Below, one piece after another: positions 8,320-21,361 of a stretch of DNA of 64,000 nucleotides. The translations under genes were made by a program, and so were the position numbers. This DNA is from Candidatus Hebobacterum abditum (GTDB lineage: Bacteria; Armatimonadota; Hebobacteria; Hebobacterales; Hebobacteraceae), in NCBI GenBank assembly GCA_029821875.1, contig JALGXW010000001.1, positions 88,089 to 152,088 of the forward strand, in the 5' to 3' direction. The notes under the pieces were generated by a model, which was given only the letters and a program-made list of their open reading frames with translations, was not told the DNA's origin and searched no databases. Numbering within the stretch: the first letter of the stretch is position 1; each line of letters starts with the position of its first letter.

Positions 8320-9434
8320 TCCTGGATGATCTCCAGGTTCGCTCGCGGGACGCGAGCGTCGGCTCCGTCGTCCAGCTTCACGCTCGCGATCCGCACGGCC
8401 GATTCGGTCTCGATCTCTGTCAGTTCCGCGGGCAGGGCGGTGACGCGGCCGAGGGCGCCGAAGTGGGGTGCCCGAATGACTCGCACCCTCGATCCTGACT
8501 GGAGGATCTGCTCGGGCTCGGGCTCCGCCGTCTCCTCTTCTGTCGCCTCCCCGGTCACGATGACCTCGGGCCGGATGACGCCGGCGCGGATCTGTGTCGC
8601 GCCGTCGATGGACGCGAGCTGCCCTTCCAGCGAGCTGAGCAGATCCCACGTACGGGTCGCCATCGCGAGGTCGCCGAATCCCTCGGTGAGGATCAGTGTC
8701 ATCGGCACGGGCTCTTGACCTGTTATCGCCACGCCGATGTCATAGCCTACGTACTCGCGCAGCGCCTGGTCCCGGACGGCGGCTACGACCAGACCCACTG
8801 CTCCGGCCTCGGCCGCCGCTCCTATCGCATCGGCGCCGGCAGACGCGCCTCCTACGATGACGCATCCCTCGCACTCGGCGATGCGATCGCGGCGAAGGAC
8901 GTCGCCGGGGCCTCCGGCCAGCACGCGGAGCGGGCCGCGTCGCTCTCCGCCAACTCCGAAGATGCCCTGCACCAGGGAGCCCTGTGCCTCGATGACAGCT
9001 CCCTCATCCTTGATGACCTCGGCGACGCGGCCTCTGATGTGAGCTGCTACCTCGACGCGGCGGGGTGCTTCCCGCACCCGGAGATGCCCCGAGGCCGCGC
9101 TGACCTCCTCGAGCGTTCCCGAGATGGGCGTCCGGAGCTCTGACTTGAATAGTCCCCAGAGCCCCTTCGTCTGAGCGATGACCTCGCCGGCCCGCACTGT
9201 GTCGCCGGGACCTCTGAGCAGATGTGATGCTAGTTCCTGTGGCTCCACGCGCAGTATCTGGGCAGCCCTGAGGGTGTGGAGGTTCCCCGGCATCTCCGCC
9301 CGTGCGACGACGTGGTCCGCCTCGATAAACTGCCCCTCTTCTACCAGCACCTCGCCGCGAAGCGGGAGACGGCGCTCCTCTACGACGAGTGCACGCGCCA
9401 TGACCCGAAGTCCCGGCGTGTAGGCGACGGCCAT
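8316..9434 (-). CDS. Uncharacterised partner of GlmL-like proteins (lipoyl/biotinyl-like barrel-sandwich segments, KOW-like C-terminus)
   Basis: MAVAYTPGL start overlaps the upstream stop (TGATG). Contains RRLPLRGEVLVEEG, QGIFGVGGER, YDIGVAITGQE, ILTEGFG, GATQIRAGVIRPEVI, VRVIRAPHFG, VPRANLEII. Confidence 0.85.
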   Translation of the reverse strand: MAVAYTPGLRVMARALVVEERRLPLRGEVLVEEGQFIEADHVVARAEMPGNLHTLRAAQILRVEPQELASHLLRGPGDTVRAGEVIAQTKGLWGLFKSELRTPISGTLEEVSAASGHLRVREAPRRVEVAAHIRGRVAEVIKDEGAVIEAQGSLVQGIFGVGGERRGPLRVLAGGPGDVLRRDRIAECEGCVIVGGASAGADAIGAAAEAGAVGLVVAAVRDQALREYVGYDIGVAITGQEPVPMTLILTEGFGDLAMATRTWDLLSSLEGQLASIDGATQIRAGVIRPEVIVTGEATEEETAEPEPEQILQSGSRVRVIRAPHFGALGRVTALPAELTEIETESAVRIASVKLDDGADARVPRANLEIIQE

Positions 9435-11218
9435 CACTCCGGCCCTCCCGGCGTTGCGCCCGCAGACTCCATCCACTCGGTGAGCTTCTGCCTGCGCTCC
9501 CCGTCATCGTCCGGCAGCCGCAGGGGCCGACCGCGCCCATCGAGAATCACGCCGGCCGGGCCTCCCTCGACCCCCCCGGACCACACGCGGCCTCGTCCTG
9601 CGCCGACATCCGTGCCCCGGCTCGGGCTGAACTCGGCCGGCGCCCTTTGCCCGGCCGGCAGTGGGAGGCGGACAAGCTCTCCCGCCCGAAGCTGCCCGCG
9701 CTCGCCGCCCATCTGCCACTCGAGGATGGCGTCTCCGTCTCGGAAGCGTCCGACCGGAGCTACGACCGTGCCGAGCGGCACGAGGCAGTCGCGCCTGAAC
9801 ACCTCCGTCGCCGCCTCCGGCAGGACCGACGCGAGTACTCCCAGCTGCGGCATCATGAATATCGAGTCGACCGCCAGGCGCGTCACGCCCTGTGGCTCGA
9901 ACGCGTCGATGAGCATGAGGGCGGCCTGCTGCCGGCGCGGGGCATGGGATAGGATGCCGCCGCTTCCGATGATGAGTCCGAGCGACATCATGTCGACCAG
10001 GGTCTCGCCGGCCGAGGCCTGTACGAAAAGGTCTGCGACCGTCCGGGCCTGCGCCACACCCTTGAGGCCCGAAGCAAGAGCTCCATGGTGGGCAAGCGCA
10101 AGGCGAAGGGCCTCCCGCGCAACGGCCTGCTCTATGAGCAAGTCCTCCCGGGTCTGAGGAATGGTCGTGGGGCGGATCATCTTGTTGCGAAGCCGGTTGC
10201 GCAACTCATCTTCCTTCAGGGGCATTGCGAGCCAGCGGCGGATGCCGTCGGCCCCGGCCTCGACAAGCACGTTGCCTACGCTGTAGCTCATGCCGAGGTT
10301 CGCCGACACCGTCCGGTTGAACTGGCCCCCGAAGACGGAGAAGATGTCGGTAGTGGCGCCGCCAATGTCCACAGCCAAGACGTCCGTGTCTTCGGTCTGC
10401 GCTGCGAGCTGCACCATCTCCCCCACCGCTCGGGGTGTGGACATGACGGGCGCGCTGGTCCACATGAGCAGCTTGTCATAGCCAGGGGCCTGGGCCATCA
10501 CGTGTTCGAGGAAGAGGCGATGGATGGCTTCGCGCGCCGGCCCCAAGTTCTCCAGCTCGAGCTGCGGCCGCAGGTTCTCCTCGACGATCAGGTTAACGCC
10601 ACCTCCGAGCACTTCGCGGATCTGATCGCGGGCATCGATGTTGCCGGCATAGATCACCGGGAGCTTAAAGTCGCGGCCGAGGCGGGGGCGCGGCGCGGCG
10701 GCTACTAGTATCTCGGCCGCGTCGAGCAAGTGTTGGACCGTGCCTCCCTCTGTCCCTCCAGACATGAGGATCATATCAGGGCGGATCGCGCGGATACGAG
10801 CGACGCGCTCGTGATCTTCCCGGCCGTCGTCGACCGCGATCACGTCGATCACGATGGCGCCGGCCCCGAGAGCGGCTCGCTGAGCGGACTCGGCCGTCAT
10901 CGTCTTGACGACACCCGTGACGAGCATCTGGAGGCCCCCGCCTGCGCTGGACGTGGACACGTAGAGGTCCGCGCCTGCGTCAGCGGCGGTTGGCGTGCCG
11001 ACGCGGGCCTGCTCGATGAAGCGCCGCTCGGTGAGTTCTTCGAGCTCGCCCACGGCGTTGAGCACACCGACGGTGACATCGTCGAAGGGCGCCTCGACCG
11101 TGGTGGGGGCTTCGCCGCGGCCCTGCAGACGATACTCACCGTTGCGCCGCTCGATGAGAATCGCCTTCGTGGTGGTGGAACCGCAGTCCGTAGCAATGAT
11201 TCGCGATGGGTCTGGCAT
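9434..11218 (-). CDS. Glutamate mutase L (GlmL/MutL-like) ASKHA-fold ATPase
   Basis: TDCGSTTTK phosphate-1 motif, EAPTTVE, TSSAGGGL, ALGAGA, MSGGTEGG, VDIGGATTDIFS, RTVSANLGMSYS. Confidence 0.9.
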   Translation of the reverse strand: MPDPSRIIATDCGSTTTKAILIERRNGEYRLQGRGEAPTTVEAPFDDVTVGVLNAVGELEELTERRFIEQARVGTPTAADAGADLYVSTSSAGGGLQMLVTGVVKTMTAESAQRAALGAGAIVIDVIAVDDGREDHERVARIRAIRPDMILMSGGTEGGTVQHLLDAAEILVAAAPRPRLGRDFKLPVIYAGNIDARDQIREVLGGGVNLIVEENLRPQLELENLGPAREAIHRLFLEHVMAQAPGYDKLLMWTSAPVMSTPRAVGEMVQLAAQTEDTDVLAVDIGGATTDIFSVFGGQFNRTVSANLGMSYSVGNVLVEAGADGIRRWLAMPLKEDELRNRLRNKMIRPTTIPQTREDLLIEQAVAREALRLALAHHGALASGLKGVAQARTVADLFVQASAGETLVDMMSLGLIIGSGGILSHAPRRQQAALMLIDAFEPQGVTRLAVDSIFMMPQLGVLASVLPEAATEVFRRDCLVPLGTVVAPVGRFRDGDAILEWQMGGERGQLRAGELVRLPLPAGQRAPAEFSPSRGTDVGAGRGRVWSGGVEGGPAGVILDGRGRPLRLPDDDGERRQKLTEWMESAGATPGGPE

Positions 11219-11348
11219 ATCCCGCTGCTGCCAAGTCGCCGTTCTGTGCGCACCACAGATGTGCGCTCGGGCCGCCGCCGCGCCCCGCACACCGTTGAGA
11301 AGGCGTCGGGAGCGCGCACTGCCGGCGGGTGCCCGGACGGCGCCGCGA

Positions 11349-11384
11349 ATCATAGCACGTGAGATTCCGGCGGGTCAATTGACA
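11349..11384. promoter_or_regulatory. Sigma70-type promoter for the GlmL-like operon, back-to-back with a + strand -35 box
   Basis: Minus strand: TTGACC (11378-11373), 18 nt, TG-C-TATGAT (11354-11349). Plus strand: TTGACA at 11379-11384 with a poor -10. Together they form the palindrome GTCAATTGAC. Confidence 0.55.
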
Positions 11385-12521: not shown

Positions 12522-13910
12522 CTACTCGCTGGCCGGCTTTGCCGGACCCAGATCAGGCAGATGCTCTCTGACAAGGGCCTCCATTTCCTCATCCGACATC
12601 GCGGTCGTCCGCCCCGCATCGTACTCTACCTGGATCGCCTCCACGATCTTGGCGATTCCCGGGTCTGACTTCTGGAGTATGTGGTCCGCCGTGAGGCCAT
12701 AGTAGGCGTTGACCCAGTGGGCGACGCCCGCGCTGCCAGAAGTATTGCCTATGGCGACAGCCACGGGCCTGTTCAGCAGAGCGTCCGTGTCGAAGATGTT
12801 GTAGATCTCCTCGTCCTTCAGCAGCCCGTCGGCATGGATGCCTGCGCGCGTGACATTGAAGTCCTTGCCGACGAACGGCTGGTTGTGTGGGATCTCATAC
12901 CCGACCTCGTTCTCGAAGTAGTCGGCGATTTCGGTGATGACCTGCGGCTGCATGCCGTTGTCATCGCCCCGGATGCCCATGTACTCAAAGACGAGGGCCT
13001 CGATCGGCGTGTTGCCCGTTCGCTCACCGATGCCCAGCAGTGTTCCATTGGCGGCCGCGCATCCGTAGAGCCAGGCGGTAGAGGCATTGCTGACCGCGCG
13101 GTAGAAATCGTTGTGCCCGTGCCACTCCAGCCATGAGCTCGGCACGCCTGCGTGGTGGACGAGGCCGTAAATGATCCCCTTCACACTGCGGGGCATAGCC
13201 ACGCCGGGGAAGGCGATGCCATAGCCCAGAGTATCGCAGGCCCGCACCTTCACTGGCATCTCCGCTTCCTTCGCCAGGCGCATCAGCTCCTGAACGAACG
13301 GCACCACGAAGCCATAGAAATCCGCCCGCGTGATGTCCTCGAGGTGGCAGCGCGGCACGACGCCGGCCTCCAGGGCAGACCGGACAATGTCGAGATACAT
13401 GTCCATCGCCTCGCGCCGCGTCTTCTTGAGCTTAAGGAATATGTGATAGTCCGAGACCGACGTGAGAATGCCCGTCTCCCGCAGGCCGATCTGTCGGACG
13501 AGCTTGAAGTCTTCCTTCCGCGCGCGAATCCACCCCGTTATCTCCGGGTATCGGAAGCCCTGCTCCAGGCAGGCGGCGACTGCCTTCTTGTGAGCGTCCG
13601 AGTAGAGGAAGAACTCACACAAGCGGATCATGCCGTTGGGCCCGCCGAGCCGGTGAAGCATGGTGTAGAGGTCCACTATCTGCTTGACAGTGAACGGCGG
13701 CCGGGCTTGCTGGCCGTCGCGGAAGGTCGTATCCGTGATCCAGATCTCATCGGGGGGATCCATTGGCACCAGCCGATGGTTGAACGAGACCATCGGGGGC
13801 TGATGATAGGAGAACAGGTCCCGGAACAGATTCGGTTCGGAGATGTCCTGAAGCTCGTAGTGATATGTCTCCTGTTCGAGCGTATTCCGCCTCTTGTTGA
13901 ACGCGATCAT
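12522..13910 (-). CDS. Re-citrate synthase (DRE-TIM / isopropylmalate synthase superfamily)
   Basis: IWITDTTFRDGQQARPP, LGGPNG, EFFLYS, PEITGWIRA, SDYHIFLKL, HLEDITRAD, EWHGHNDF, TRAGIHADG. This motif set is typical of the anaerobe Re-citrate synthase clade, and there is no LeuA regulatory domain. Confidence 0.85.
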   Translation of the reverse strand: MIAFNKRRNTLEQETYHYELQDISEPNLFRDLFSYHQPPMVSFNHRLVPMDPPDEIWITDTTFRDGQQARPPFTVKQIVDLYTMLHRLGGPNGMIRLCEFFLYSDAHKKAVAACLEQGFRYPEITGWIRARKEDFKLVRQIGLRETGILTSVSDYHIFLKLKKTRREAMDMYLDIVRSALEAGVVPRCHLEDITRADFYGFVVPFVQELMRLAKEAEMPVKVRACDTLGYGIAFPGVAMPRSVKGIIYGLVHHAGVPSSWLEWHGHNDFYRAVSNASTAWLYGCAAANGTLLGIGERTGNTPIEALVFEYMGIRGDDNGMQPQVITEIADYFENEVGYEIPHNQPFVGKDFNVTRAGIHADGLLKDEEIYNIFDTDALLNRPVAVAIGNTSGSAGVAHWVNAYYGLTADHILQKSDPGIAKIVEAIQVEYDAGRTTAMSDEEMEALVREHLPDLGPAKPASE

Positions 13911-14151
13911 CGGTTTGCTCCTCCGGTCTGGGGGAAGTCAGGAACGCTCCCTAAGATTACCCGAAAGAGGGACAGATTGTCCAGGGGACGGCCCTCCATC
14001 TGTTGGGCAAGAGGCTAGCGGCCCCCCGGCCACGCACGGCCTGGGTCGCTGTGAAGAGGGGCTGCGGCTCTGGCGATGCACGGCGAGAGGCCCGTACCGG
14101 CCCGGGAGGCACTGTGCTCACGACCGACGAACAGCCCGGAGCCATCGCCGT

Positions 14152-14892
14152 CTAGTAGGTCCGGGGCCTGGGAAGATCGAACGTCGCGCTCCCCTCCGCC
14201 TCCCCGTCTCTCACTAGGAGGGAGAGAGAGCGCACGTTGGGCCCTACCGGTGGAACCCCCGGCCCCCCCTCAATAGGGAACCGCACGACATAGTAGTACA
14301 GCGCGGCCGGTGGCGCGGACTTGTCGAACGTGGGACTGATGTCTCGCACCCACTGCGGCGTCTCCACCGCAACGGGAGGATACTCAACGCCGAGATTGGT
14401 GCGTAGCGCGAAGTCGACGCTGGCCGGGTCTCTGTCCTTCGGAACCTGCACCGTGGCGACGCACCGCAGCTCGCGCTCGATGGTCCTCAGCGCCTTGTTC
14501 ACCGCCCGGCGCACGCCCGCATCGCTCCTATCCCCGCCCAGCGCAACCTGATAGCAGACCTCGTCCTGCGGCCAGCAGCATCCGGCCGAGCGGAGGATCA
14601 CATCGGCCGAAATGCGCACGTTGACATCCATGAGCCGCCACTTGAAAACGTCCGCCGGATCGCCCCCGCTTGCGATCGTGCTCTTGCCTCGGTTCACCGC
14701 GCGCGTCATGTCCTGGTCGCTGACCTGCAGAGCAGGATGGAGGGTCTCGCGGCTGCTGCAACCCCCGGCAGCCAGGATCAGGGACAGGATGCTCGCCGCC
14801 GCGACGCCCACTAAGAGGTGGCTCGGCAGGAGGGAGCGGAAGGCGCGAGGCAGGAAGGTGGTGCGACACTGGCCGTAGGCACACGTACCCAT
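14152..14892 (-). CDS. Hypothetical lipoprotein
   Basis: Hydrophobic stretch ending in the lipobox-like LAAGGC. A promoter lies upstream. Start uncertain (14904 or 14892). Confidence 0.65.
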   Translation of the reverse strand: MGTCAYGQCRTTFLPRAFRSLLPSHLLVGVAAASILSLILAAGGCSSRETLHPALQVSDQDMTRAVNRGKSTIASGGDPADVFKWRLMDVNVRISADVILRSAGCCWPQDEVCYQVALGGDRSDAGVRRAVNKALRTIERELRCVATVQVPKDRDPASVDFALRTNLGVEYPPVAVETPQWVRDISPTFDKSAPPAALYYYVVRFPIEGGPGVPPVGPNVRSLSLLVRDGEAEGSATFDLPRPRTY

Positions 14893-14948
14893 GGCTTTGC
14901 TCAATCCCCCACGCAGTCGTCTCTCCTTTCAGAAAGAGACCCAGTGTA

Positions 14949-14977
14949 GGATACCACAACCACGCGCGAAGGTCAAA
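14949..14977 (-). promoter_or_regulatory. Putative sigma70 promoter
   Basis: Minus strand TTGACC, 17 nt, TG-G-TATCCT upstream of the lipoprotein gene. Confidence 0.5.
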
Positions 14978-15198
14978 GTCAACTCGCACGCCGTTCGCGC
15001 ACCTTTTTGCTTGGCCGCTTCGGAACTGCTGTGTCCTGCAACCGAGATTCGCCGCCCCCCGCAGGATGATTGCACAAGAGGCCTCTGGCGAGGCCGTCAC
15101 TCTGAGTGCAGCAGAGGGCTTGCCTTGCAGAGCCCTGGAGCCGCCGTGAAGGTGTGGCGCGTCAGGGCGAGCTGGCGATGTCGTCTTGCCCCGATTGA

Positions 15199-15939
15199 CT
15201 AGGCAGCATACTTGGCGCCGTACGGGCGGTGCGAGATGGCGGCAATCCGGATGAATCCATCGCTGAGGATGTCGTCGGCGCTGAGGCCAAATGCGTCGGA
15301 GAAGGCCTCGATGTGCGGTCGCAGGCCCTCTTTCTCGCTCTCCTCTGCCCCCCGCACGCCCGCGAACTGCGATGCAACGCGCCACGGCTCGACTTCTCCA
15401 CGCACGAACACCTCGCCGCCGTGCATGCCGGTCGCGCACCAGTCACCGACGAGCGGCTCGCCGCGGCGACGGTCCAGGCCGAGGATGATCAAGAGCCCTC
15501 CGGCCATGTACTCACTTAGGAAGTCGCCAGCTGTGCCTCCCGCGACCAGCACGGGCCGCCTGCCGCGGTAGGCCTTCATGTGAATGCCGACGCGATAGCC
15601 GACGCGCCCGCGGACGAACAGCTCTCCGCCGCGCATTCCATACCCGAGCACATCGCCGGCATGGCCCTCGATGATGATGCGGCCGGCATTCATCGTATTC
15701 GCGACTGCATCTTGCGCATTCCCGAGCACCCGCATTGTCGGTCCGTCCATGAAGGCGCCGAGGTCGTTGCCGGGCACGCCCTTGATAACGATCTCGACAT
15801 CGGCGCCTTGCAGCCCGTCTCCGATGTACCGCTGGCCATTCACGTTTACCAGCTCGAGCGACTTCTCGCCGGCCGCCAGGGCCTCTCGTATCCGCTGGTT
15901 CAGGTCTCGGTAGTGCAGGTTGTCCGCGTCGATCCGCAT
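15199..15939 (-). CDS. Glutamate synthase domain 3 (GXGXG beta-helix) stand-alone subunit
   Basis: NVNGQRYIG, GVPGNDLGAFMDG, GDVLGYGMRGG, GYRVGIHMK, GDFLSEYMAGG, TGMHGG. Confidence 0.93.
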   Translation of the reverse strand: MRIDADNLHYRDLNQRIREALAAGEKSLELVNVNGQRYIGDGLQGADVEIVIKGVPGNDLGAFMDGPTMRVLGNAQDAVANTMNAGRIIIEGHAGDVLGYGMRGGELFVRGRVGYRVGIHMKAYRGRRPVLVAGGTAGDFLSEYMAGGLLIILGLDRRRGEPLVGDWCATGMHGGEVFVRGEVEPWRVASQFAGVRGAEESEKEGLRPHIEAFSDAFGLSADDILSDGFIRIAAISHRPYGAKYAA

Positions 15940-15983
15940 CGCTCGCCCTTCCTAATCGGCATTCGTCATCTTGCAGCGCCGGC

Positions 15984-17564
15984 TCAAGCTCCGACGCCGG
16001 CCGGCTTGACTCCGAGTATCTCCATGGTCGTGTGGTCGAGGCCGACCGCGCGCAGCCGCTCGCGGCTGCCGCGCAGGCTCTCGATCGCATTCACTCCCAT
16101 TGCCCCCAGTATCTCCTCGAGTTCGGCGCTCCACCCCCGAAGGAGGTTGGCGACGCGGCGGGAGCCGAGGTAGGGGTCGAGGCGGCGGGTGAGCGCCGGG
16201 TCCTGGGTGGTGATCCCCCAGGAACAGCGGCCTGTATAGCACTTCTGGCACAGGGTGCACCCGAGGGCCAGCAGGGCGCCCGTGCCCAGAGCGACCGCGT
16301 CGGCGCCAAGCGCAATCGCCTTCGCGGCGTCGGCACTCGACCGGATGCCGCCGGCGGCGACGATGGCGGCCTGATTGCGGATGCCCTCGTCGCGGAGCTG
16401 CTGATCCACGACGGCGATGGCGATTTCGATCGGAATGCCGAGGTGATCCCGGATGATCGTGGGCGCGGCGCCGGTCCCGCCGCGGAATCCATCGAGGTAG
16501 ACGATGTCGGCCCCCGCCCGGACGATGCCGCTGGCGATCGCGGCGACATTGTGCACAGCGGCGATCTTCACCGAGACGGGCTTCTCGTACCTGGAGGCTT
16601 CCTTGAGCGCGTAGATAAGCTGGCGCAGGTCCTCAATGGAGTAGATGTCGTGCTGTGGGGCCGGGGAGAGGGCGTCGCTTCCCTGGGGGATCATGCGCGT
16701 CTGCGAAACCTGCTGCGATACCTTCTCGCCGGGGAGGTGTCCGCCGATGCCGGGCTTGGCCCCTTGGCCGATCTTGATCTCGATTGCCGCGCCCGCGTTC
16801 AGGTAGTCCGCCGTGACACCGAAACGACCGGAGGCGCACTGCACGATGGCGCGGTGACCATATGGCTTCAGATCCTCGTGCAGGCCCCCCTCGCCGGTGT
16901 TCCAGTATGTCCCGCACTCCTCGGCCGCCATCGCAATCGCCTTCTGTGCGTTGAGGCTGATTGACCCATAGGACATGGCGGCGAAGATTATCGGCGTCTC
17001 CAGCTCCAGAGTCGGCGCGATCTCCGTCGCGAGCTCTGGGCCGTCATCTGTGATCTCCAACCCGACCTGGTCCGGCAGGCGGCCCAAACAGGTGCGCAAT
17101 TCCATCGGCTCCCGGAGGGGATCGATGGAGGGGTTGGTGACCTGACACGCGTCGAGGAGCAGGCTATCCCATAAGATCGGGTAGGGGAGGTCGTTACCCA
17201 TGCCGGTCAGCAGCACGCCGCCAGTCTCCGCCTGAATCCAGAGGTTCTTTCGATGTGCCTCGCTCCACAGCGGGTGCGGCCGCAGGTACTGCGGGTCGGG
17301 CTGTATCGTGATTGCCTTCTGCGCACAGAAGGCCTCGCAGCGATGGCAGCCCACGCATTTCGCGGCGTCGACAACCGGACCGTTCTCCCAGGTTATCGCG
17401 TCGAACCCGCACTGCTGCACGCACCGCTTGCAGAGCGCGCAGCGCTCAGCATCCCGCGTCCATTCGAAGTCGGACGGCCGGTAGATGGGAGCCCGCGTCG
17501 TCCGCGCCGGCCTGGCCGTCGCCGCGTCCGCGTTCCCTCTTTTCTTCGTCGTTGCGCTACTCAC
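15984..17564 (-). CDS. FMN-binding glutamate synthase subunit with an N-terminal 2x[4Fe-4S] domain (archaeal-type GltB2)
   Basis: CALCKRCVQQC and CVGCHRCEAFC; QVTNPSIDPLRE, MSYGSIS, NTGEGG, ASGRFGV, EIKIGQGAKPGIGGHLPGEKV, SPAPQHDIYSIEDL, CTLCQKCYTGRC. Confidence 0.96.
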   Translation of the reverse strand: MSSATTKKRGNADAATARPARTTRAPIYRPSDFEWTRDAERCALCKRCVQQCGFDAITWENGPVVDAAKCVGCHRCEAFCAQKAITIQPDPQYLRPHPLWSEAHRKNLWIQAETGGVLLTGMGNDLPYPILWDSLLLDACQVTNPSIDPLREPMELRTCLGRLPDQVGLEITDDGPELATEIAPTLELETPIIFAAMSYGSISLNAQKAIAMAAEECGTYWNTGEGGLHEDLKPYGHRAIVQCASGRFGVTADYLNAGAAIEIKIGQGAKPGIGGHLPGEKVSQQVSQTRMIPQGSDALSPAPQHDIYSIEDLRQLIYALKEASRYEKPVSVKIAAVHNVAAIASGIVRAGADIVYLDGFRGGTGAAPTIIRDHLGIPIEIAIAVVDQQLRDEGIRNQAAIVAAGGIRSSADAAKAIALGADAVALGTGALLALGCTLCQKCYTGRCSWGITTQDPALTRRLDPYLGSRRVANLLRGWSAELEEILGAMGVNAIESLRGSRERLRAVGLDHTTMEILGVKPAGVGA

Positions 17565-18726
17565 GTGTCACCTCCTGGCCGACGGTCTGGGCTGAGATCA
17601 CATTGCCGTCACGGCTCGGCTCGCCGATCACGATGTCGCTCCCGAGACGGCCGATCACTGGATACCCAGCCCTAGGAGTCCACACGAGGTCGGGGTCTGG
17701 ACACATCGCCCGAATTCCGGCCTCCTCGCTCGATATGAACAGCCAACTCCCCTTCCGCGCCGCCACCAGCGGCCGCAGCTTGATCCGATCATTCACTCCC
17801 ACCATCTCCCCCTGCCGTCCGAAGATGATGGCGAACGGTCCGTTGACCAGGGCGCTGCCGTAGACCTGCCGGAGCGCCTGGTAGAGCCGGCGCCTCGGTC
17901 CTGGCAGCCGATCGATCTGCTCCCAGAAGGGAGCGGCCATTACATCGCAGGCGACCTCGACGGGAAGGCTGTGTCGCCTTATCAGTAGATCGAGCAGGTA
18001 GGCCATGACCTCCGTGTCGGTGCGCATCGTGCACTTGTAGCCGAACATCTCGAGATACCTTCTGTTGATCCCGTAGGAGGAGATCTCACCATTGTGCACG
18101 ACGGCCCAGTCCAGAAGTGTGAACGGATGGGCCCCCGCCCACCACCCCGGCGTATTCGTCGGGAATCGTCCGTGAGCGATCCAGATATAGGCCTCGTACT
18201 CCTCCAGCCGGAAGAAGTCGGCGATGTCCTCTGCGTAGCCAACGGCCTTGAAGGCGCCCATGTTCTTCCCGCTGGAGAAGACGAAGGCTCCGGGCATCTC
18301 GGCGTTGATGCGCATGACTCGCTCGAGCACGAAGTCTTCCGGGGTGCTGCCGGACTCCTGCAGCTGCAGCGGGCGCGGCTGCACGAAGTACCTCATCAGC
18401 AGCGGGGGATTGACTATGTTCGGGTTCGGGCGGGTCGGAATCCGCTCGTCAAGATCCACATCGAAGTCCTGCTCCAGCAGCGCTTCCGCGCCCTCCTGCG
18501 CGGAGGCCGTATCGAACATCATGTGCAGCGCGAACTGATCCGCTCGGTCCGGGTAGATGCCATAGCAGGCGAAGCCGCCGCCAAGGCCGTTGGACCTCTC
18601 GTGAAGGATAGCGATCGAGGAGCGGATGGCACTTCCGTCCACCCTCTCTCCTGTGAGGCTCATCATCCCGCTCAGGCCGCAGCCCGATACGTTGCGCCGG
18701 CCTCGGTCGAAGCTAGCTTGAGTCAT
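17557..18726 (-). CDS. Class II (Ntn) glutamine amidotransferase, glutamate synthase domain 1 subunit
   Basis: SGCG with the Ntn nucleophile Cys; ERSNGLGGGF, SSGKNMG.FK, HGRFPTNTPGWW.GAHPF, HNGEISSY, DTEV, NDRIKLRP. Confidence 0.94.
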   Translation of the reverse strand: MTQASFDRGRRNVSGCGLSGMMSLTGERVDGSAIRSSIAILHERSNGLGGGFACYGIYPDRADQFALHMMFDTASAQEGAEALLEQDFDVDLDERIPTRPNPNIVNPPLLMRYFVQPRPLQLQESGSTPEDFVLERVMRINAEMPGAFVFSSGKNMGAFKAVGYAEDIADFFRLEEYEAYIWIAHGRFPTNTPGWWAGAHPFTLLDWAVVHNGEISSYGINRRYLEMFGYKCTMRTDTEVMAYLLDLLIRRHSLPVEVACDVMAAPFWEQIDRLPGPRRRLYQALRQVYGSALVNGPFAIIFGRQGEMVGVNDRIKLRPLVAARKGSWLFISSEEAGIRAMCPDPDLVWTPRAGYPVIGRLGSDIVIGEPSRDGNVISAQTVGQEVTRE

Positions 18727-20092
18727 CGTCGCTGTCCTCCGTCTCCGCCCTATCTTCGCTCGTCGCGGGTAGTGGGCTCGGCCCGAGGAGTTCTCGCAGT
18801 TCCTCAATGGCGACCTCGGGCGGGGGTGGGAGCCCCAGTCGCCGGCGCTGAGCCACAGATGCCTGTGTGAGCTGGCCCTTGTCGCGGAAGGTCCGCATGC
18901 CCTCGAGGGCCGCTGGGGGCGCCAACCCCTGCTCAATGGCAAGGTGCTTGGCCTGGCGCAGGATGGACATCTGATCGTACTTGCTGGGGCAAAGTTCCGC
19001 GCATGTGTAGCACTCGACACACTTCCAGAGGTCAGGTGAGCGCAGCACCTCATCTACCTGTCCGGCCGCCAGCGCGCGGATGAGCGCGTTGGGATCATAC
19101 GTTGGGTCAGCGTGTGCGACGGGACAGTCATCGACACAGGCGCCGCACTCGGCGCATGCGCGCAAGAGATTCAGATCCCAGTGGTTCGTCACGAGGTCGA
19201 AGGCCTCAGTGCGTCCGCGCCAGCGGTCGAGGAAGGGCCCGACATCGACTCTGTGTCGGTCGAGTCCTAGCTCGGCCGGCTCCATGCCCAGCGAGAGGCC
19301 AAGGAGTTCGGGGTAGTACAGGACCGGGAGGTGGACAGCTTCTCCTTCCCGCTGGAGCAGGAACTGCATGTTGTCGTACTGCATCATGCATGACGGGCAC
19401 ACGAGAGTCAGCGCGTCGGCTTCTTCGTCGATCATGTCCCGCAGCTTGCCCCGGCACATGGCGCGAGCCGTATCCTCTTCGCCCGCGCGCAGAAGCAGAT
19501 TGCCGCAGCACTCCATCTTGGAGGGGTAGGGGAGACTGTCGGCGCCAAGGGCCTCGACGAGTTCGTCGAACTTCTTGGGCCAGAACGGATCGTCGAACAG
19601 CAGCTCGCCGCTCGGACGGAGAAGGTGGCAGCCGTAGTGCACCGCGATCCGGAGGCCGGTCATGGGGTAGACGACACGGTTCCGCAACGCGCCCGGCCCC
19701 ACGTCCTGGTAGAGCAAATCGAGCACATGCATGACGTCGGTCGTGCCGCGGTAACGCCGTCCGATGCGCGCCAGCTCGGTGTTGACCTCCTCCCGGAGCG
19801 CGGGCTCGGAGAGAAGCTTGACCTGCGCCTCCTTCAACGTCGAGAAGCAGCCAGTGCATGGCGTCACGAACACCCGCCCGGCCTCCTCCGCTACCGTGAG
19901 ATTCCGAGCAGCAGTCAGAAGCCAGTCCCGGTAGCTCATGTTGCGGATCATGGTCTTCTCCGGACAGCAGGTGAGGCCGTCCACATCGACCGCATCGATC
20001 CCCAGTCGCTCAAAGACAGCGCGTGTGGACTTCTCCATGTAGGGAAGACGCCCCGGGACGTAGCAACCCCAGAAATAGGCGTAAGCAGGCAT
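18713..20092 (-). CDS. Heterodisulfide reductase-like HdrB-HdrC fusion protein
   Basis: Two CCG domains (WGC..TCCP..PCTGC and HYGCHLLRP..ECCG..VCPSC) followed by two ferredoxin motifs (CAECGACVDDCP, CVECYTCAELCP). RBS GGAGG. The 3' end overlaps the GATase start. Confidence 0.92.
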   Translation of the reverse strand: MPAYAYFWGCYVPGRLPYMEKSTRAVFERLGIDAVDVDGLTCCPEKTMIRNMSYRDWLLTAARNLTVAEEAGRVFVTPCTGCFSTLKEAQVKLLSEPALREEVNTELARIGRRYRGTTDVMHVLDLLYQDVGPGALRNRVVYPMTGLRIAVHYGCHLLRPSGELLFDDPFWPKKFDELVEALGADSLPYPSKMECCGNLLLRAGEEDTARAMCRGKLRDMIDEEADALTLVCPSCMMQYDNMQFLLQREGEAVHLPVLYYPELLGLSLGMEPAELGLDRHRVDVGPFLDRWRGRTEAFDLVTNHWDLNLLRACAECGACVDDCPVAHADPTYDPNALIRALAAGQVDEVLRSPDLWKCVECYTCAELCPSKYDQMSILRQAKHLAIEQGLAPPAALEGMRTFRDKGQLTQASVAQRRRLGLPPPPEVAIEELRELLGPSPLPATSEDRAETEDSDDDSS

Positions 20093-20186
20093 GTGCGCCT
20101 CCGCAAGGCGTGCCCCGCCACTGGCCGACAGGGCTTCAGGGGGGGCGGCGGTAGGTGACCTACTGCCGGCCGCCGCTCCTACTCCG

Positions 20187-20216
20187 AGTATACCCTTCCA
20201 CGTCCGGCTGAGTCAA
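20187..20216 (-). promoter_or_regulatory. Sigma70-type promoter of the hdrBC-glutamate synthase operon
   Basis: Minus strand TTGACT, 18 nt, TATACT, about 95 nt upstream of the ATG. Confidence 0.65.
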
Positions 20217-20401
20217 CCCCTTGTGTCTCACCTGCAGCTTCGTTGGTGGGCGGGCCTCCAGCGAGACGCAAGCCTGTGTGGGGGTGCTGTGGGGAGAGGG
20301 TGAAGGCTGTTGGGAGCTGGCGGCGAGGGGTGGAGCGGAGCGCTAAGGAGGGGGGAGAACTGCCGGATGAAACGCCCGAGTGCAAGGGCGGAGAGGTGTC
20401 G

Positions 20402-21361
20402 CTAGGCGCCGCCGCGCGCGCGGAGGACCTCTATGGTGTCGGGGTCCTCCGCGATTGCGATGGGCGTGTTGCCCTCGCTGTTCTCTGGTTGGGAGCGGGC
20501 GCCGGCGATGAGGATGAGGTCGGCGATCTCCGCATGCCCGCCCTGGGCCGCGAAGTGCAACGCGGTCCAGTCGTTGGGATTCGTGGCATCCGGATCGGCT
20601 CCGGCGCAGAGAAGGCGCTCGACGATGATGACATCTCCCCGCGAGGCGGCGGCCATCAGCGGTGTCCATCCGTCGCCCGACAGGGCGTTGACATCCGCGC
20701 CGCGCTCGATCAGCAGGTTGGCGATCTCGGTGGTATGCGCGAGGCGCAGCGGAGCGATGTCGTTATCATCCATCGCGTTGACATCCGCGCCCGTGTCGAG
20801 CAGACGCTGGACTGTCCGAGCACTCACCCCGCGTGCAGCTTCATGGAGCGGCGTGCGGCCGTCAATGCCCCGTGCGTCGGTCCTCGCGCCAGCGTTGAGC
20901 AGCAGTTCCACAACGTCGGCGCGCCCGCGTCGAGCCGCGAAGATAAGAGGAGTCTGACCGCCGCGCAACGAGCAGTTCGGGTTCGCTCCGTGCTTCAGCA
21001 AGAGATCAACTACCTTCCTCGATGCACGAACGTCCCTACACCAGACGGCATCGATCAGAGGCGTGTCGCCGTGGTCTGAACGCGCCTCCAACTCCGCGCC
21101 GTTGTTGAGCAGGCACTCAACAACCTGCACCTGACCACGACTGGCGGCGAAGTGGAGTGGTGTCTCGCCCCACCGATGGCGCGCGTTGATGTCTGCCCCG
21201 CGTTGAAGATGACGTTCGACGGCCTCCACATCGCCGTGCGCAGCCGCGCGATGAAGCCCCGGGCAGGCAGTAATGCAGCCCCGGCCCTTGCCCAACATCA
21301 CCGAACACACAGCGATGAGGGCAAGACTCAAGCAGGCGAAGACTATCCCGCTCTTCTGCAT
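20402..21361 (-). CDS. Ankyrin repeat protein with an N-terminal signal/anchor
   Basis: About eight repeats of G.TPLH.AA..G....V..LL..GAD.N; hydrophobic N-terminus. Confidence 0.95.
   Translation of the reverse strand: MQKSGIVFACLSLALIAVCSVMLGKGRGCITACPGLHRAAAHGDVEAVERHLQRGADINARHRWGETPLHFAASRGQVQVVECLLNNGAELEARSDHGDTPLIDAVWCRDVRASRKVVDLLLKHGANPNCSLRGGQTPLIFAARRGRADVVELLLNAGARTDARGIDGRTPLHEAARGVSARTVQRLLDTGADVNAMDDNDIAPLRLAHTTEIANLLIERGADVNALSGDGWTPLMAAASRGDVIIVERLLCAGADPDATNPNDWTALHFAAQGGHAEIADLILIAGARSQPENSEGNTPIAIAEDPDTIEVLRARGGA

Follow-up and report, generated by a model that had tools for sequence, protein, structure and literature searches.

The window, i.e., the complete stretch of 64,000 nucleotides (nt) that was analysed, stems from Candidatus Hebobacterum abditum (contig JALGXW010000001.1, positions 88,089 to 152,088). 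On its minus strand, at 15199-20092, four tightly packed genes are found in the order hdrBC fusion, glutaminase, flavin mononucleotide (FMN)/Fe-S subunit, and GXGXG subunit. The last three encode the parts of a split glutamate synthase (glutamine:2-oxoglutarate amidotransferase, GOGAT), while the first encodes a fusion of an HdrB-like and an HdrC-like protein. The occurrence of HdrBC as a conserved fourth gene in several bacterial and archaeal phyla suggests that a main nitrogen-assimilating enzyme is powered by a thiol, e.g., by protein-bound lipoate. The features of the operon are the following:

18713..20092, minus strand: HdrB-HdrC fusion gene, 459 amino acids (aa), domain order B then C, acidic C-terminal tail
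19223..20083, minus strand: HdrB-like domain (aa 4-290), two CCG motifs, match to solved HdrB chains
18815..19171, minus strand: HdrC-like domain (aa 308-426), two CxxCxxCxxxC motifs for two [4Fe-4S] clusters, match to HdrC chains
17557..18726, minus strand: Ntn-type (class-II) glutaminase subunit, 389 aa from the ATG at 18726, GATase_2
15984..17564, minus strand: FMN/Fe-S synthase (GltB) subunit, 526 aa, Glu_synthase plus N-terminal 2x[4Fe-4S]
15199..15939, minus strand: GXGXG subunit (GltB C-terminal domain / FwdC-like), 246 aa, assigned with Pfam/NCBIfam
20187..20216, minus strand: sigma-70-like promoter site TTGACT-18-TATACT, 10 of 12 consensus matches, about 95 nt 5' of the hdrBC start codon
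14985..15001, minus strand: weak terminator-like hairpin, possible operon end, about 200 nt past the GXGXG stop codon

An original prediction, which had been made from the letters of the window, had described these four genes with two overlaps and a gap of 44 bp behind a single promoter. The open reading frames (ORFs) lie exactly where it had placed them; hdrBC and the glutaminase gene overlap by 14 nt, the glutaminase gene and the gene of the FMN subunit overlap by 8 nt, and the latter is separated from the GXGXG gene by 44 nt. The promoter was also recovered as the sigma-70-like site at 20216-20187. Two such sites were seen in 13800-20500, compared to 0.7 expected from shuffled sequences, and they are consensus matches only. 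One terminator-like hairpin was seen and 2.5 were expected, which is not significant. Searches with Rfam, including a check for a riboswitch or leader, yielded no match at the gathering threshold in the whole window and none with E values up to 1 in 19900-20400.

The fusion protein matched the Pfam family CCG (PF02754) twice (97.7 bits) and in addition a 4Fe-4S dicluster family. The cysteines of the CCG motifs (C42, C43, C79, C82, C155, C195, C196, C232, and C235) and of the two CxxCxxCxxxC motifs (C313/316/319/323 and C358/361/364/368) were invariant in 13 and in 45 aligned homologues, and the earlier view that all cluster ligands are intact thus held. In solved HdrB structures the CCG pair provides the ligands of two non-cubane [4Fe-4S] clusters. 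The HdrB-like domain matched solved HdrB chains along its entire length (E values of 5e-67 to 2e-62; 5e-67 to 6e-65 for 9sfi_C, 8rvu_b, and 5odc_B), and the HdrC-like domain matched solved HdrC chains with E values of about 1e-14. Despite these motifs and the similarity to solved chains the fusion was not filed as a heterodisulfide reductase, because it stayed below the curated equivalog cut-offs (279 bits versus 345.15 for HdrB, TIGR03288; 65 bits versus 160 for HdrC, TIGR03290) and because no HdrA was found in the genome. The score with the TfrB model NF004898 was likewise far below the cut-off (69 versus 385 bits), and the neighbours are Glt subunits and not a fumarate-reductase flavoprotein. 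The bit scores against solved HdrB were alike for the fusions of the window (230), Methanoperedens (240), and Peptococcaceae (226), and do not discriminate between substrates. Database entries for homologues of the fusion bear no other names than heterodisulfide reductase subunit or 4Fe-4S protein, and the ESM Atlas has the generic name "Cysteine-rich/4Fe-4S dicluster".

In the glutaminase subunit Ser14-Gly15-Cys16 and the motifs RFPTNT and HNGEISS were invariant in 18 of 18 aligned sequences. The catalytic Cys16 appears to be retained behind a short leader of 15 aa, which would have to be removed. The FMN subunit matched Glu_synthase (PF01645) with 456 bits at model positions 4-369, and its TIM barrel comprises aa 129-492. 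All three four-Cys motifs are kept, two in the N-terminal 2x[4Fe-4S] domain (Cys 42/45/48/52 and 70/73/76/80) and an invariant one at 436/439/442/447. The GXGXG subunit matched PF01493 with 122 bits. The three Glt proteins have the domain features of a glutamate synthase, and they are devoid of any known electron-input partner: neither GltD nor a ferredoxin site nor an FrhB partner was present in the operon or among the 48 scanned ORFs of the window. These ORFs consisted of sets of 8 and 40, the latter comprising 39 of the 53 greedily called ORFs with a minimum length of 110 aa and, in addition, the ORF at 20243-21079, which was common to both sets. In agreement with the original prediction, no gltD, other FAD oxidoreductase, frhB-like, or hdrA-like gene was among them, and the genome-wide matches to GltD-like and HdrA models all lie outside the window, except for the ferredoxin domain of the FMN subunit itself.

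Conservation of the cluster and the electron-input slot

A profile of the fusion was used to search contigs of one genome per species. It retrieved 194 related stretches, of which the best 80 were kept as loci. Among the record titles of these best 80 of 194 are many archaea (Methanoperedens, ANME-2, Methanogaster, and Argoarchaeum), and the bacterial names include Armatimonadota/"Hebobacteria", Nitrospirota, Bacillota with Peptococcaceae, Thermacetogeniaceae, and Clostridia, and in one case each Thermodesulfobacteriota and "Deltaproteobacteria". In five loci less than 300 bp remain 3' of hdrBC; the 75 others, with at least 300 bp, could be assessed, and in 72 of these the start of the glutaminase gene follows hdrBC directly (-14 to +700 nt). 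The order hdrBC, glutaminase, FMN subunit was found in 61 of 64 loci with at least 3 kb of downstream sequence, and in the 58 loci with at least 4.5 kb the GXGXG gene was downstream in 49, upstream in seven, and missing in two. There were three exceptions. One locus (L012) has the same genes reordered (GAT-FMN-GXGXG-Lpd-LplA/B-LipA-LCP-HdrBC, LCP being a lipoyl-carrier protein), and in another genome this order is split over two contigs (L079 and L130, of which the latter ends GAT-FMN-GXGXG-Lpd-LplA/B). In the third (L074) hdrB and hdrC are individual genes, and only the FMN subunit follows them. The linkage between hdrBC and glutamate synthase is not due to chance. Co-localisation in other genomes had been named as a check on the original prediction, and the linkage was kept across phyla.

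The FMN subunit of the window is 64-70% identical to that of Methanoperedens/ANME archaea, the HdrBC fusion only 43-47%. The cluster has evidently been moved between Bacteria and Archaea, and the constraint on its parts is unequal.

Two further approaches addressed physical association. Among longer proteins (805-2,295 aa) no fused "Rosetta-stone" form reached an E value of 1e-30 or better, a weak piece of evidence. HdrBC (aa 1-440) and the FMN subunit (aa 25-526) were co-folded, each with an alignment of 45 rows; the score was 0.00 without control runs and speaks neither for nor against an interaction.

The gene content of related genomes was then compared. A full-length fusion is present in 19 of 251 genomes of the phylum sample, all of which belong to the class of the window's organism. 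Each of 18 fusion-bearing genome entries had exactly one strong PF01645 match. The open frame with this match measures 334-648 aa, none reaches 1,400 aa, and in 16 of the 18 its contig also carries hdrBC. Five of the seven class members that lack the fusion have an open frame of 1,529-1,555 aa, the size of a conventional GltB, and so do seven of 13 more distant members of the phylum (1,491-1,581 aa). The original prediction had assigned HdrBC to the electron-input slot of the enzyme. This assignment was strengthened by the near-universal linkage across phyla and by the mutual exclusivity with GltB-sized frames of about 1,530-1,555 aa within the class.

The genome of the window's organism is 95% complete, and its single full Glu_synthase (PF01645) gene is that of the operon. 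Glutamine synthetase is encoded on contig C42 and is 68% identical to that of an Argoarchaeum locus (L057), in which glnA follows the cluster. A glutamate dehydrogenase (GDH) of the ELFV type was not detected in the genome by tblastn with a single query. Because there is one Glu_synthase gene, glutamine synthetase is present, and no ELFV-type GDH was detected, the operon is most likely the only route of the organism to glutamate.

The original prediction had offered two variants, docking of the synthase to an HdrA-type bifurcating complex encoded elsewhere or coupling to a thiol/disulfide pool. For canonical HdrA the first variant was rejected: HdrA was not found in the 95%-complete genome, and the best match to the HdrA model reached 34.7 bits versus a cut-off of 1400 and covered ferredoxin-domain positions only (HdrE was not searched). 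The only MvhD-bearing protein of the genome is encoded together with MetF/MetV-like genes. The thiol variant is favoured over docking to HdrA. The GltD-like genes elsewhere in the genome belong to other clusters, and there is one further CCG protein, which is GlcF/GlpC/LdhH-like.

Two of these clusters deserve a description of their own. On contig C58 (57553-59502; L083:7467-9542, minus strand) a protein of 691 aa is encoded that combines a GltD-like NAD(P)H flavoprotein with ferredoxin domains and MvhD/FlpD in one chain. MetV-like and MetF-like genes follow directly downstream, and judged by this arrangement the cluster looks like a methylene-tetrahydrofolate reductase that is wired to a GltD/MvhD protein instead of HdrA. 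On contig C64 (131876-134186; L086:7877-10186) a pair of NfnA-like and NfnB-like genes was found. The NfnB-like protein exceeds the cut-off of the TIGR01316 "gltA" model (606 versus 472 bits), and it could be mis-annotated as glutamate synthase.

Lipoate genes at the cluster and elsewhere in the genomes

In ten loci (L012, L028, L029, L038, L040, L055, L059, L060, L067, and L072) a gene for a lipoyl-domain protein lies directly upstream of hdrBC. The labels of these loci are Bacillota, Clostridia, Eubacteriales, Peptococcaceae, or Thermacetogeniaceae, and their typical gene order is GXGXG, Lpd, LCP, hdrBC, glutaminase, FMN subunit, from which the reordered L012 deviates. The LCP consists of a single lipoyl domain of the E2 type (PF00364), has a length of 76-88 aa as called with a core of 77 aa, and contains an invariant Lys in EMxTxKAVF. 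The dihydrolipoyl dehydrogenase (Lpd) of the clusters has the domains Pyr_redox_2 and Pyr_redox_dim. In L012 and in the genome of L079/L130 genes for an LplA/B-type lipoate-protein ligase and for LipA are inserted between Lpd and the carrier. In the latter genome LipA, the radical SAM lipoyl synthase, continues at its C-terminus into the lipoyl-carrier domain (L079:121-1293), which it presumably modifies, and the fused gene lies directly upstream of hdrBC. In L050 Lpd directly precedes hdrBC and a carrier gene is missing.

A reverse search of metagenome contigs with the LCP alignment yielded 18 loci. Eight of them encode an LCP that is at least 77% identical; all eight have hdrBC directly downstream, seven have Lpd upstream, and glt genes follow where the DNA reaches. 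In the eight loci that were annotated in full no other thiol-carrier gene was conserved beside the cluster, and the carriers encoded within clusters were always lipoyl proteins. Flanks of up to 8 kb on each side were searched for lipoyl and Lpd genes with tblastn (E 1e-8) and a hidden Markov model (HMM) of the LCP (E 1e-3). The 68 of the 80 loci without Lpd or LCP are labelled Armatimonadota, Nitrospirota, uncultured, or archaeal in 67 cases, and the remaining one is L074 (Thermodesulfobacteriota).

In the window's genome the LCP HMM found no match at an E value of 1e-3 or better. The genome encodes GcvH with the lipoyl-Lys motif ESVKA on contig C15, between genes for a pseudouridine synthase and hsp20, and Lpd on contig C27, with genes for an AsnC/Lrp regulator and an aminotransferase behind it. 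LipA and an LplA/B-type ligase are also present, while GcvP, GcvT, and an E2 acyltransferase were not found in the 95%-complete genome. The only strong match to a biotin/lipoyl domain carries EAMKV, and because of this motif the protein is the biotin carboxyl carrier protein. The lipoate system of this genome is therefore left without a known client.

The same pattern recurs in relatives. In family f1, GcvH is present in 12 of 12 genomes, GcvP in 5 of 12, and E2 in 0 of 12. At least four of the five gcvP-bearing genomes contain a second, divergent GcvH, which is encoded beside gcvP in three, and in a FastTree phylogeny the "solo" GcvH proteins of the family form a clade distinct from the gcvP-linked copies. 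Two close relatives (G001 and G002) have GcvH and Lpd and lack GcvP and E2, and one contig of G002 (C1) spans 3,149,615 bp. In three Nitrospirota genomes with the cluster, gcvH directly adjoins lpd and is located away from gcvP. In the class sample of Methanoperedens with 151 genomes, the fusion occurs in five and GcvH-like genes, usually as tandem pairs, in seven; all five fusion genomes are among these seven, and the other two have only unfused hdrC-hdrB. GcvP was missing from eight of nine archaeal genomes that were checked.

The tandem GcvH-like pairs of the Methanoperedens genomes G011 and G013 (L087:5458-6353 and L088:6421-7316) have retained the lipoyl-Lys position. Both genomes lack GcvP, and the genes around the pairs are uninformative. 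Two loci retrieved with the LCP alignment are of interest in themselves. In L104 a lipoyl module is tied to glutamate synthase even without hdrBC. In L103 (2-5255) the C-terminus of FrdA is followed by a TfrB-like protein of 515 aa, composed of a 2Fe-2S domain, a 4Fe-4S dicluster, and two CCG domains, by the alpha, beta, and gamma subunits of a 2-oxoacid:ferredoxin oxidoreductase (OFOR), and by a lipoyl-domain protein of 116 aa. L103 may encode a bacterial, lipoyl-linked counterpart of thiol:fumarate reductase.

The second variant of the original prediction, coupling to a thiol/disulfide pool, thus received backing from the genes for lipoyl carrier, Lpd, LplA, and LipA that lie against hdrBC in clusters of the Bacillota type and from the orphan GcvH/Lpd/LipA set of the window's genome. 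The mechanism itself is a proposal.

Proposed electron path and competing explanations

Our preferred reading is that the four genes encode one split archaeal-type GOGAT, in which electron input is provided by the HdrBC fusion instead of GltD and is fed by a dithiol, here likely dihydrolipoyl-GcvH. Its probability is estimated to be about one half (roughly 50%). From the observed gene anatomy, the intact ligands, the linkage, and the gene-content patterns we infer a single four-protein complex, the direction of electron flow within it, and the identity of the thiol. NAD(P)H would reduce Lpd, which would re-reduce lipoyl-GcvH. The dithiol would then be oxidised at the two non-cubane [4Fe-4S] clusters of the HdrB-like domain, i.e., the Hdr reaction would be run backwards. 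The electrons would pass via the two [4Fe-4S] clusters of the HdrC-like domain to the two clusters in the N-terminal ferredoxin domain of the FMN subunit, and further via its four-Cys cluster to FMN. FMN would reduce 2-iminoglutarate, formed from 2-oxoglutarate and ammonia that is channelled from the Cys16 glutaminase. The evidence for this path from NAD(P)H via Lpd, lipoyl-GcvH, HdrBC, and the Fe-S clusters of GltB to FMN is circumstantial. In the window's organism the dithiol would most likely be dihydrolipoyl-GcvH, in clusters of the Bacillota type a dedicated lipoyl-carrier protein of 77 aa would take the place of GcvH, and for Methanoperedens/ANME-2 GcvH-like proteins or CoM-SH plus CoB-SH are conceivable as donors.

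The redox potentials are about -290 mV for lipoamide, about -140 mV for CoM-S-S-CoB, and about -140 mV for 2-oxoglutarate plus NH4+/glutamate, the latter being raised by glutamine hydrolysis. At these potentials the assimilatory direction is thermodynamically feasible with the lipoamide as well as with the CoM/CoB donor, and the opposite direction is uphill. The more general proposal of a fourth class of glutamate synthase, which is driven by a protein-bound or coenzyme dithiol and not by ferredoxin, NAD(P)H, or F420, and in which the bacterial GltD is replaced by Lpd, a lipoyl carrier, and HdrBC, is tentative and falls a little short of even odds.

Several observations weigh against a dithiol-fed enzyme. 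The CCG domains also score against the GlpC, GlcF, LdhH, and SdhE families, the names of which do not include a thiol substrate. The compared genomes are mutually related, so that the counts are not independent and overstate independence. Neither the window nor the searched flanks of 68 of the 80 loci contain a lipoyl or Lpd gene, and therefore the GcvH link in the window's organism is drawn from gene content only. The solo GcvH proteins of family f1 and the Lpd-adjacent GcvH proteins of Nitrospirota do not form a cross-phylum clade (FastTree, supports not printed). An orphan GcvH also occurs in genomes that lack the fusion (G034, G262, G177, which is 81% complete, and G342 and G370 of the archaeal sample). 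In L104 (1-5898) Lpd-LplA/B-LCP-ilvN follow tightly after a GltB-like C-terminal part (GXGXG) and a GltD-like gene, and hdrBC is missing in the 5 kb downstream. Relatives of the LCP with 62-64% identity, L100 (with LipA) and L103 (with TfrB-like and OFOR genes), have no gene for an HdrBC fusion in the sequenced stretch; for two further relatives, L101 and L102, the downstream DNA is too short to judge. In two Peptococcaceae genomes the cluster Lpd is the only Lpd that was found, and gcvH-gcvP are also present. This Lpd may also serve glycine cleavage, and Lpd alone is not specific to the enzyme.

The most probable of the alternative explanations, which is nevertheless unlikely, is that HdrBC is a GOGAT subunit, but a mere Fe-S wire for a non-thiol donor, with the CCG clusters as relay or docking centres. 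The donor could be reduced ferredoxin, the GltD-like/Fer4/MvhD fusion on C58, or the NfnAB-like pair on C64. The broad matches of the CCG domains, the GltD-like flavoproteins that are encoded at other sites of the genome, including the MvhD fusion, and the absence of lipoyl and Lpd genes from the window and 68 loci all suit a wire, and the data on linkage and mutual exclusivity fit it equally well. However, the MvhD flavoprotein is encoded in a MetF/MetV-like operon, the C64 pair scores as NfnAB/gltA-type, and no HdrA was found. A wire would also leave unexplained why genes for lipoyl carrier, LplA, and LipA lie at hdrBC in ten genome loci plus L079/L130 and in eight metagenome loci, and why the CCG cysteines are invariant in a close homologue of HdrB.

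It is rather improbable that the enzyme is thiol-driven and the donor here is another dithiol, i.e., a thioredoxin-like, DsrC-like, or low-molecular-weight thiol, with the orphan GcvH/Lpd serving something else. GcvH (C15) and Lpd (C27) are indeed unlinked to the operon in the window's genome, the orphan GcvH without a fusion is in line with such a donor, and so is the Lpd-LCP module of L104 adjoining GltB-/GltD-like genes in the sequenced stretch. Yet the fully annotated loci revealed no conserved alternative to the lipoyl proteins as cluster-encoded carriers. Even less probable is a maintenance or regulatory role, in which HdrBC would work in the reducing direction, e.g., on a glutaminase disulfide, an oxidised Cys, or a redox switch, and would not deliver catalytic electrons. 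The molecule names of the solved chains indicate that canonical HdrB reduces a disulfide, and the glutaminase has an essential Cys16, but this role would leave the sole GOGAT without an electron-input subunit in genomes in which no GDH was detected, and housekeeping repair does not predict exclusivity with GltB-sized open frames. Finally, a chance neighbourhood, with hdrBC acting in some other pathway, is hardly credible, since nothing beyond missing interaction data speaks for it and since the glutaminase gene directly follows hdrBC in 72 of the 75 assessable loci mentioned above, which cover at least four bacterial phylum labels plus Methanoperedens/ANME-2, and the coding regions in the window overlap twice.

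The surroundings of the operon contain further genes on the minus strand. On its 3' side lie an ORF of 250 aa with a lipobox-like signal sequence and without a family match (14152-14904) and a gene for an HMGL-like synthase, similar to homocitrate, isopropylmalate, and citramalate synthases and below all cut-offs (12522-13910). The same order of the two is kept in another locus (L003). A protein of 639 aa encoded at 9434-11353 matched PF13941 ("MutL protein") with 418 bits, which we take to be the MutL type associated with glutamate mutase and not the mismatch-repair MutL. Just 5' of the hdrBC promoter, on the same strand, an ankyrin-repeat protein of 319 aa is encoded (20402-21361).

Significance and comparison with known systems

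Glutamine synthetase and GOGAT together form a main route of ammonium assimilation. To our knowledge the physiological electron donor of split archaeal-type glutamate synthases has stayed unclear. Here, one conserved gene marks the slot for electron input in lineages to which the nitrate- and metal-dependent methane oxidisers belong, and in one bacterial group the neighbouring genes name a concrete donor chain of NAD(P)H, Lpd, lipoyl protein, and HdrBC. If the dithiol-fed GOGAT is real, glutamate synthase would have a new class of donor, lipoate would gain an anabolic role in nitrogen assimilation, and the non-cubane clusters of the HdrB type would gain an anabolic, thiol-oxidising role beyond thiol:fumarate reductase. 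It would also provide a function for "orphan" sets of GcvH, Lpd, and LipA, explaining a full lipoate system in anaerobes without GcvP, GcvT, and 2-oxoacid dehydrogenase, and would improve the annotation of proteins of non-methanogens that are now named heterodisulfide reductase subunits. In Methanoperedens/ANME-2 the enzyme might oxidise CoM-SH plus CoB-SH, and glutamate synthesis would then be tied to the regeneration of heterodisulfide for reverse methanogenesis.

In a full-text literature search, in which passages of PMC9012536, PMC12054007, PMC6046458, PMC5736913, and PMC12008871 were matched, no paper was found that joins HdrBC or lipoyl proteins to glutamate synthase; the figure and PDF supplements of PMC9012536 could bear on this claim. 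This agrees with the original statement that no characterised enzyme of this composition is known. One of the matched passages mentions the proposed F420-dependent glutamate synthase (FGltS) and FrhB10 clustered with glutamate synthase subunits (PMC9012536). With FGltS and with the other classical glutamate synthases (NADPH-GltBD and Fd-GltS) the proteins of the window share the Ntn glutaminase with its conserved Cys, the FMN barrel with Fe-S, and the GXGXG domain. In contrast to these enzymes, each module is a polypeptide of its own, the cluster adjoining FMN has four Cys, all of them invariant, and the operon lacks GltD and FrhB and has the HdrBC fusion as electron-input gene.

The sulfur-oxidising heterodisulfide-reductase-like system sHdr-LbpA (bioRxiv 10.1101/2023.12.18.572138) is similar in that HdrB-like CCG proteins act jointly with lipoate-binding proteins of the GcvH type. 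It differs in that no HdrA was found here, the partners are Glt subunits, and the carrier within the clusters has a lipoyl domain of the E2 type (PF00364). The arrangement hdrC1B1A-hyp-hdrC2B2 with HdrA and an adjacent LbpA is not present, as HdrA was not found and GcvH is unlinked on C15 (sulfur transferases were not searched). The function of sHdr-LbpA is dissimilatory sulfur oxidation, and HdrA and sulfur transferases are among its components.

The methanogen complex HdrABC-MvhAGD (5odc, 8rvu, 9sfi) shares the full-length HdrB alignment, the CCG cysteines, and both 4Fe-4S motifs of HdrC with the fusion. The window differs from it by the fusion of B and C, the missing HdrA, the Armatimonadota-labelled relatives, and the glutamate synthase partners, and a thiol would be oxidised instead of a disulfide being reduced. 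The recruitment of HdrBC-type subunits to a flavoenzyme of non-methanogenic bacteria has a parallel in the acetogen methylene-tetrahydrofolate reductase MetFV-HdrABC-MvhD, which contains HdrA and MvhD. In the window's genome, in contrast, the MetF/MetV-like genes lie beside the GltD-like/MvhD fusion and hdrBC is found together with glt genes.

The closest precedent in logic is the thiol:fumarate reductase TfrAB of methanogens, which takes electrons from CoM-SH and CoB-SH and which is represented in the family models under the single name "fumarate reductase (CoM/CoB) subunit TfrB". In TfrAB an Fe-S subunit with CCG domains feeds a biosynthetic flavoenzyme from a thiol pair, and the proposed enzyme of the window would do likewise. 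The two systems differ in that the match to the TfrB model is far below its cut-off, the reductase in the window is a GOGAT, and the proposed donor in Bacteria would be a lipoyl protein.

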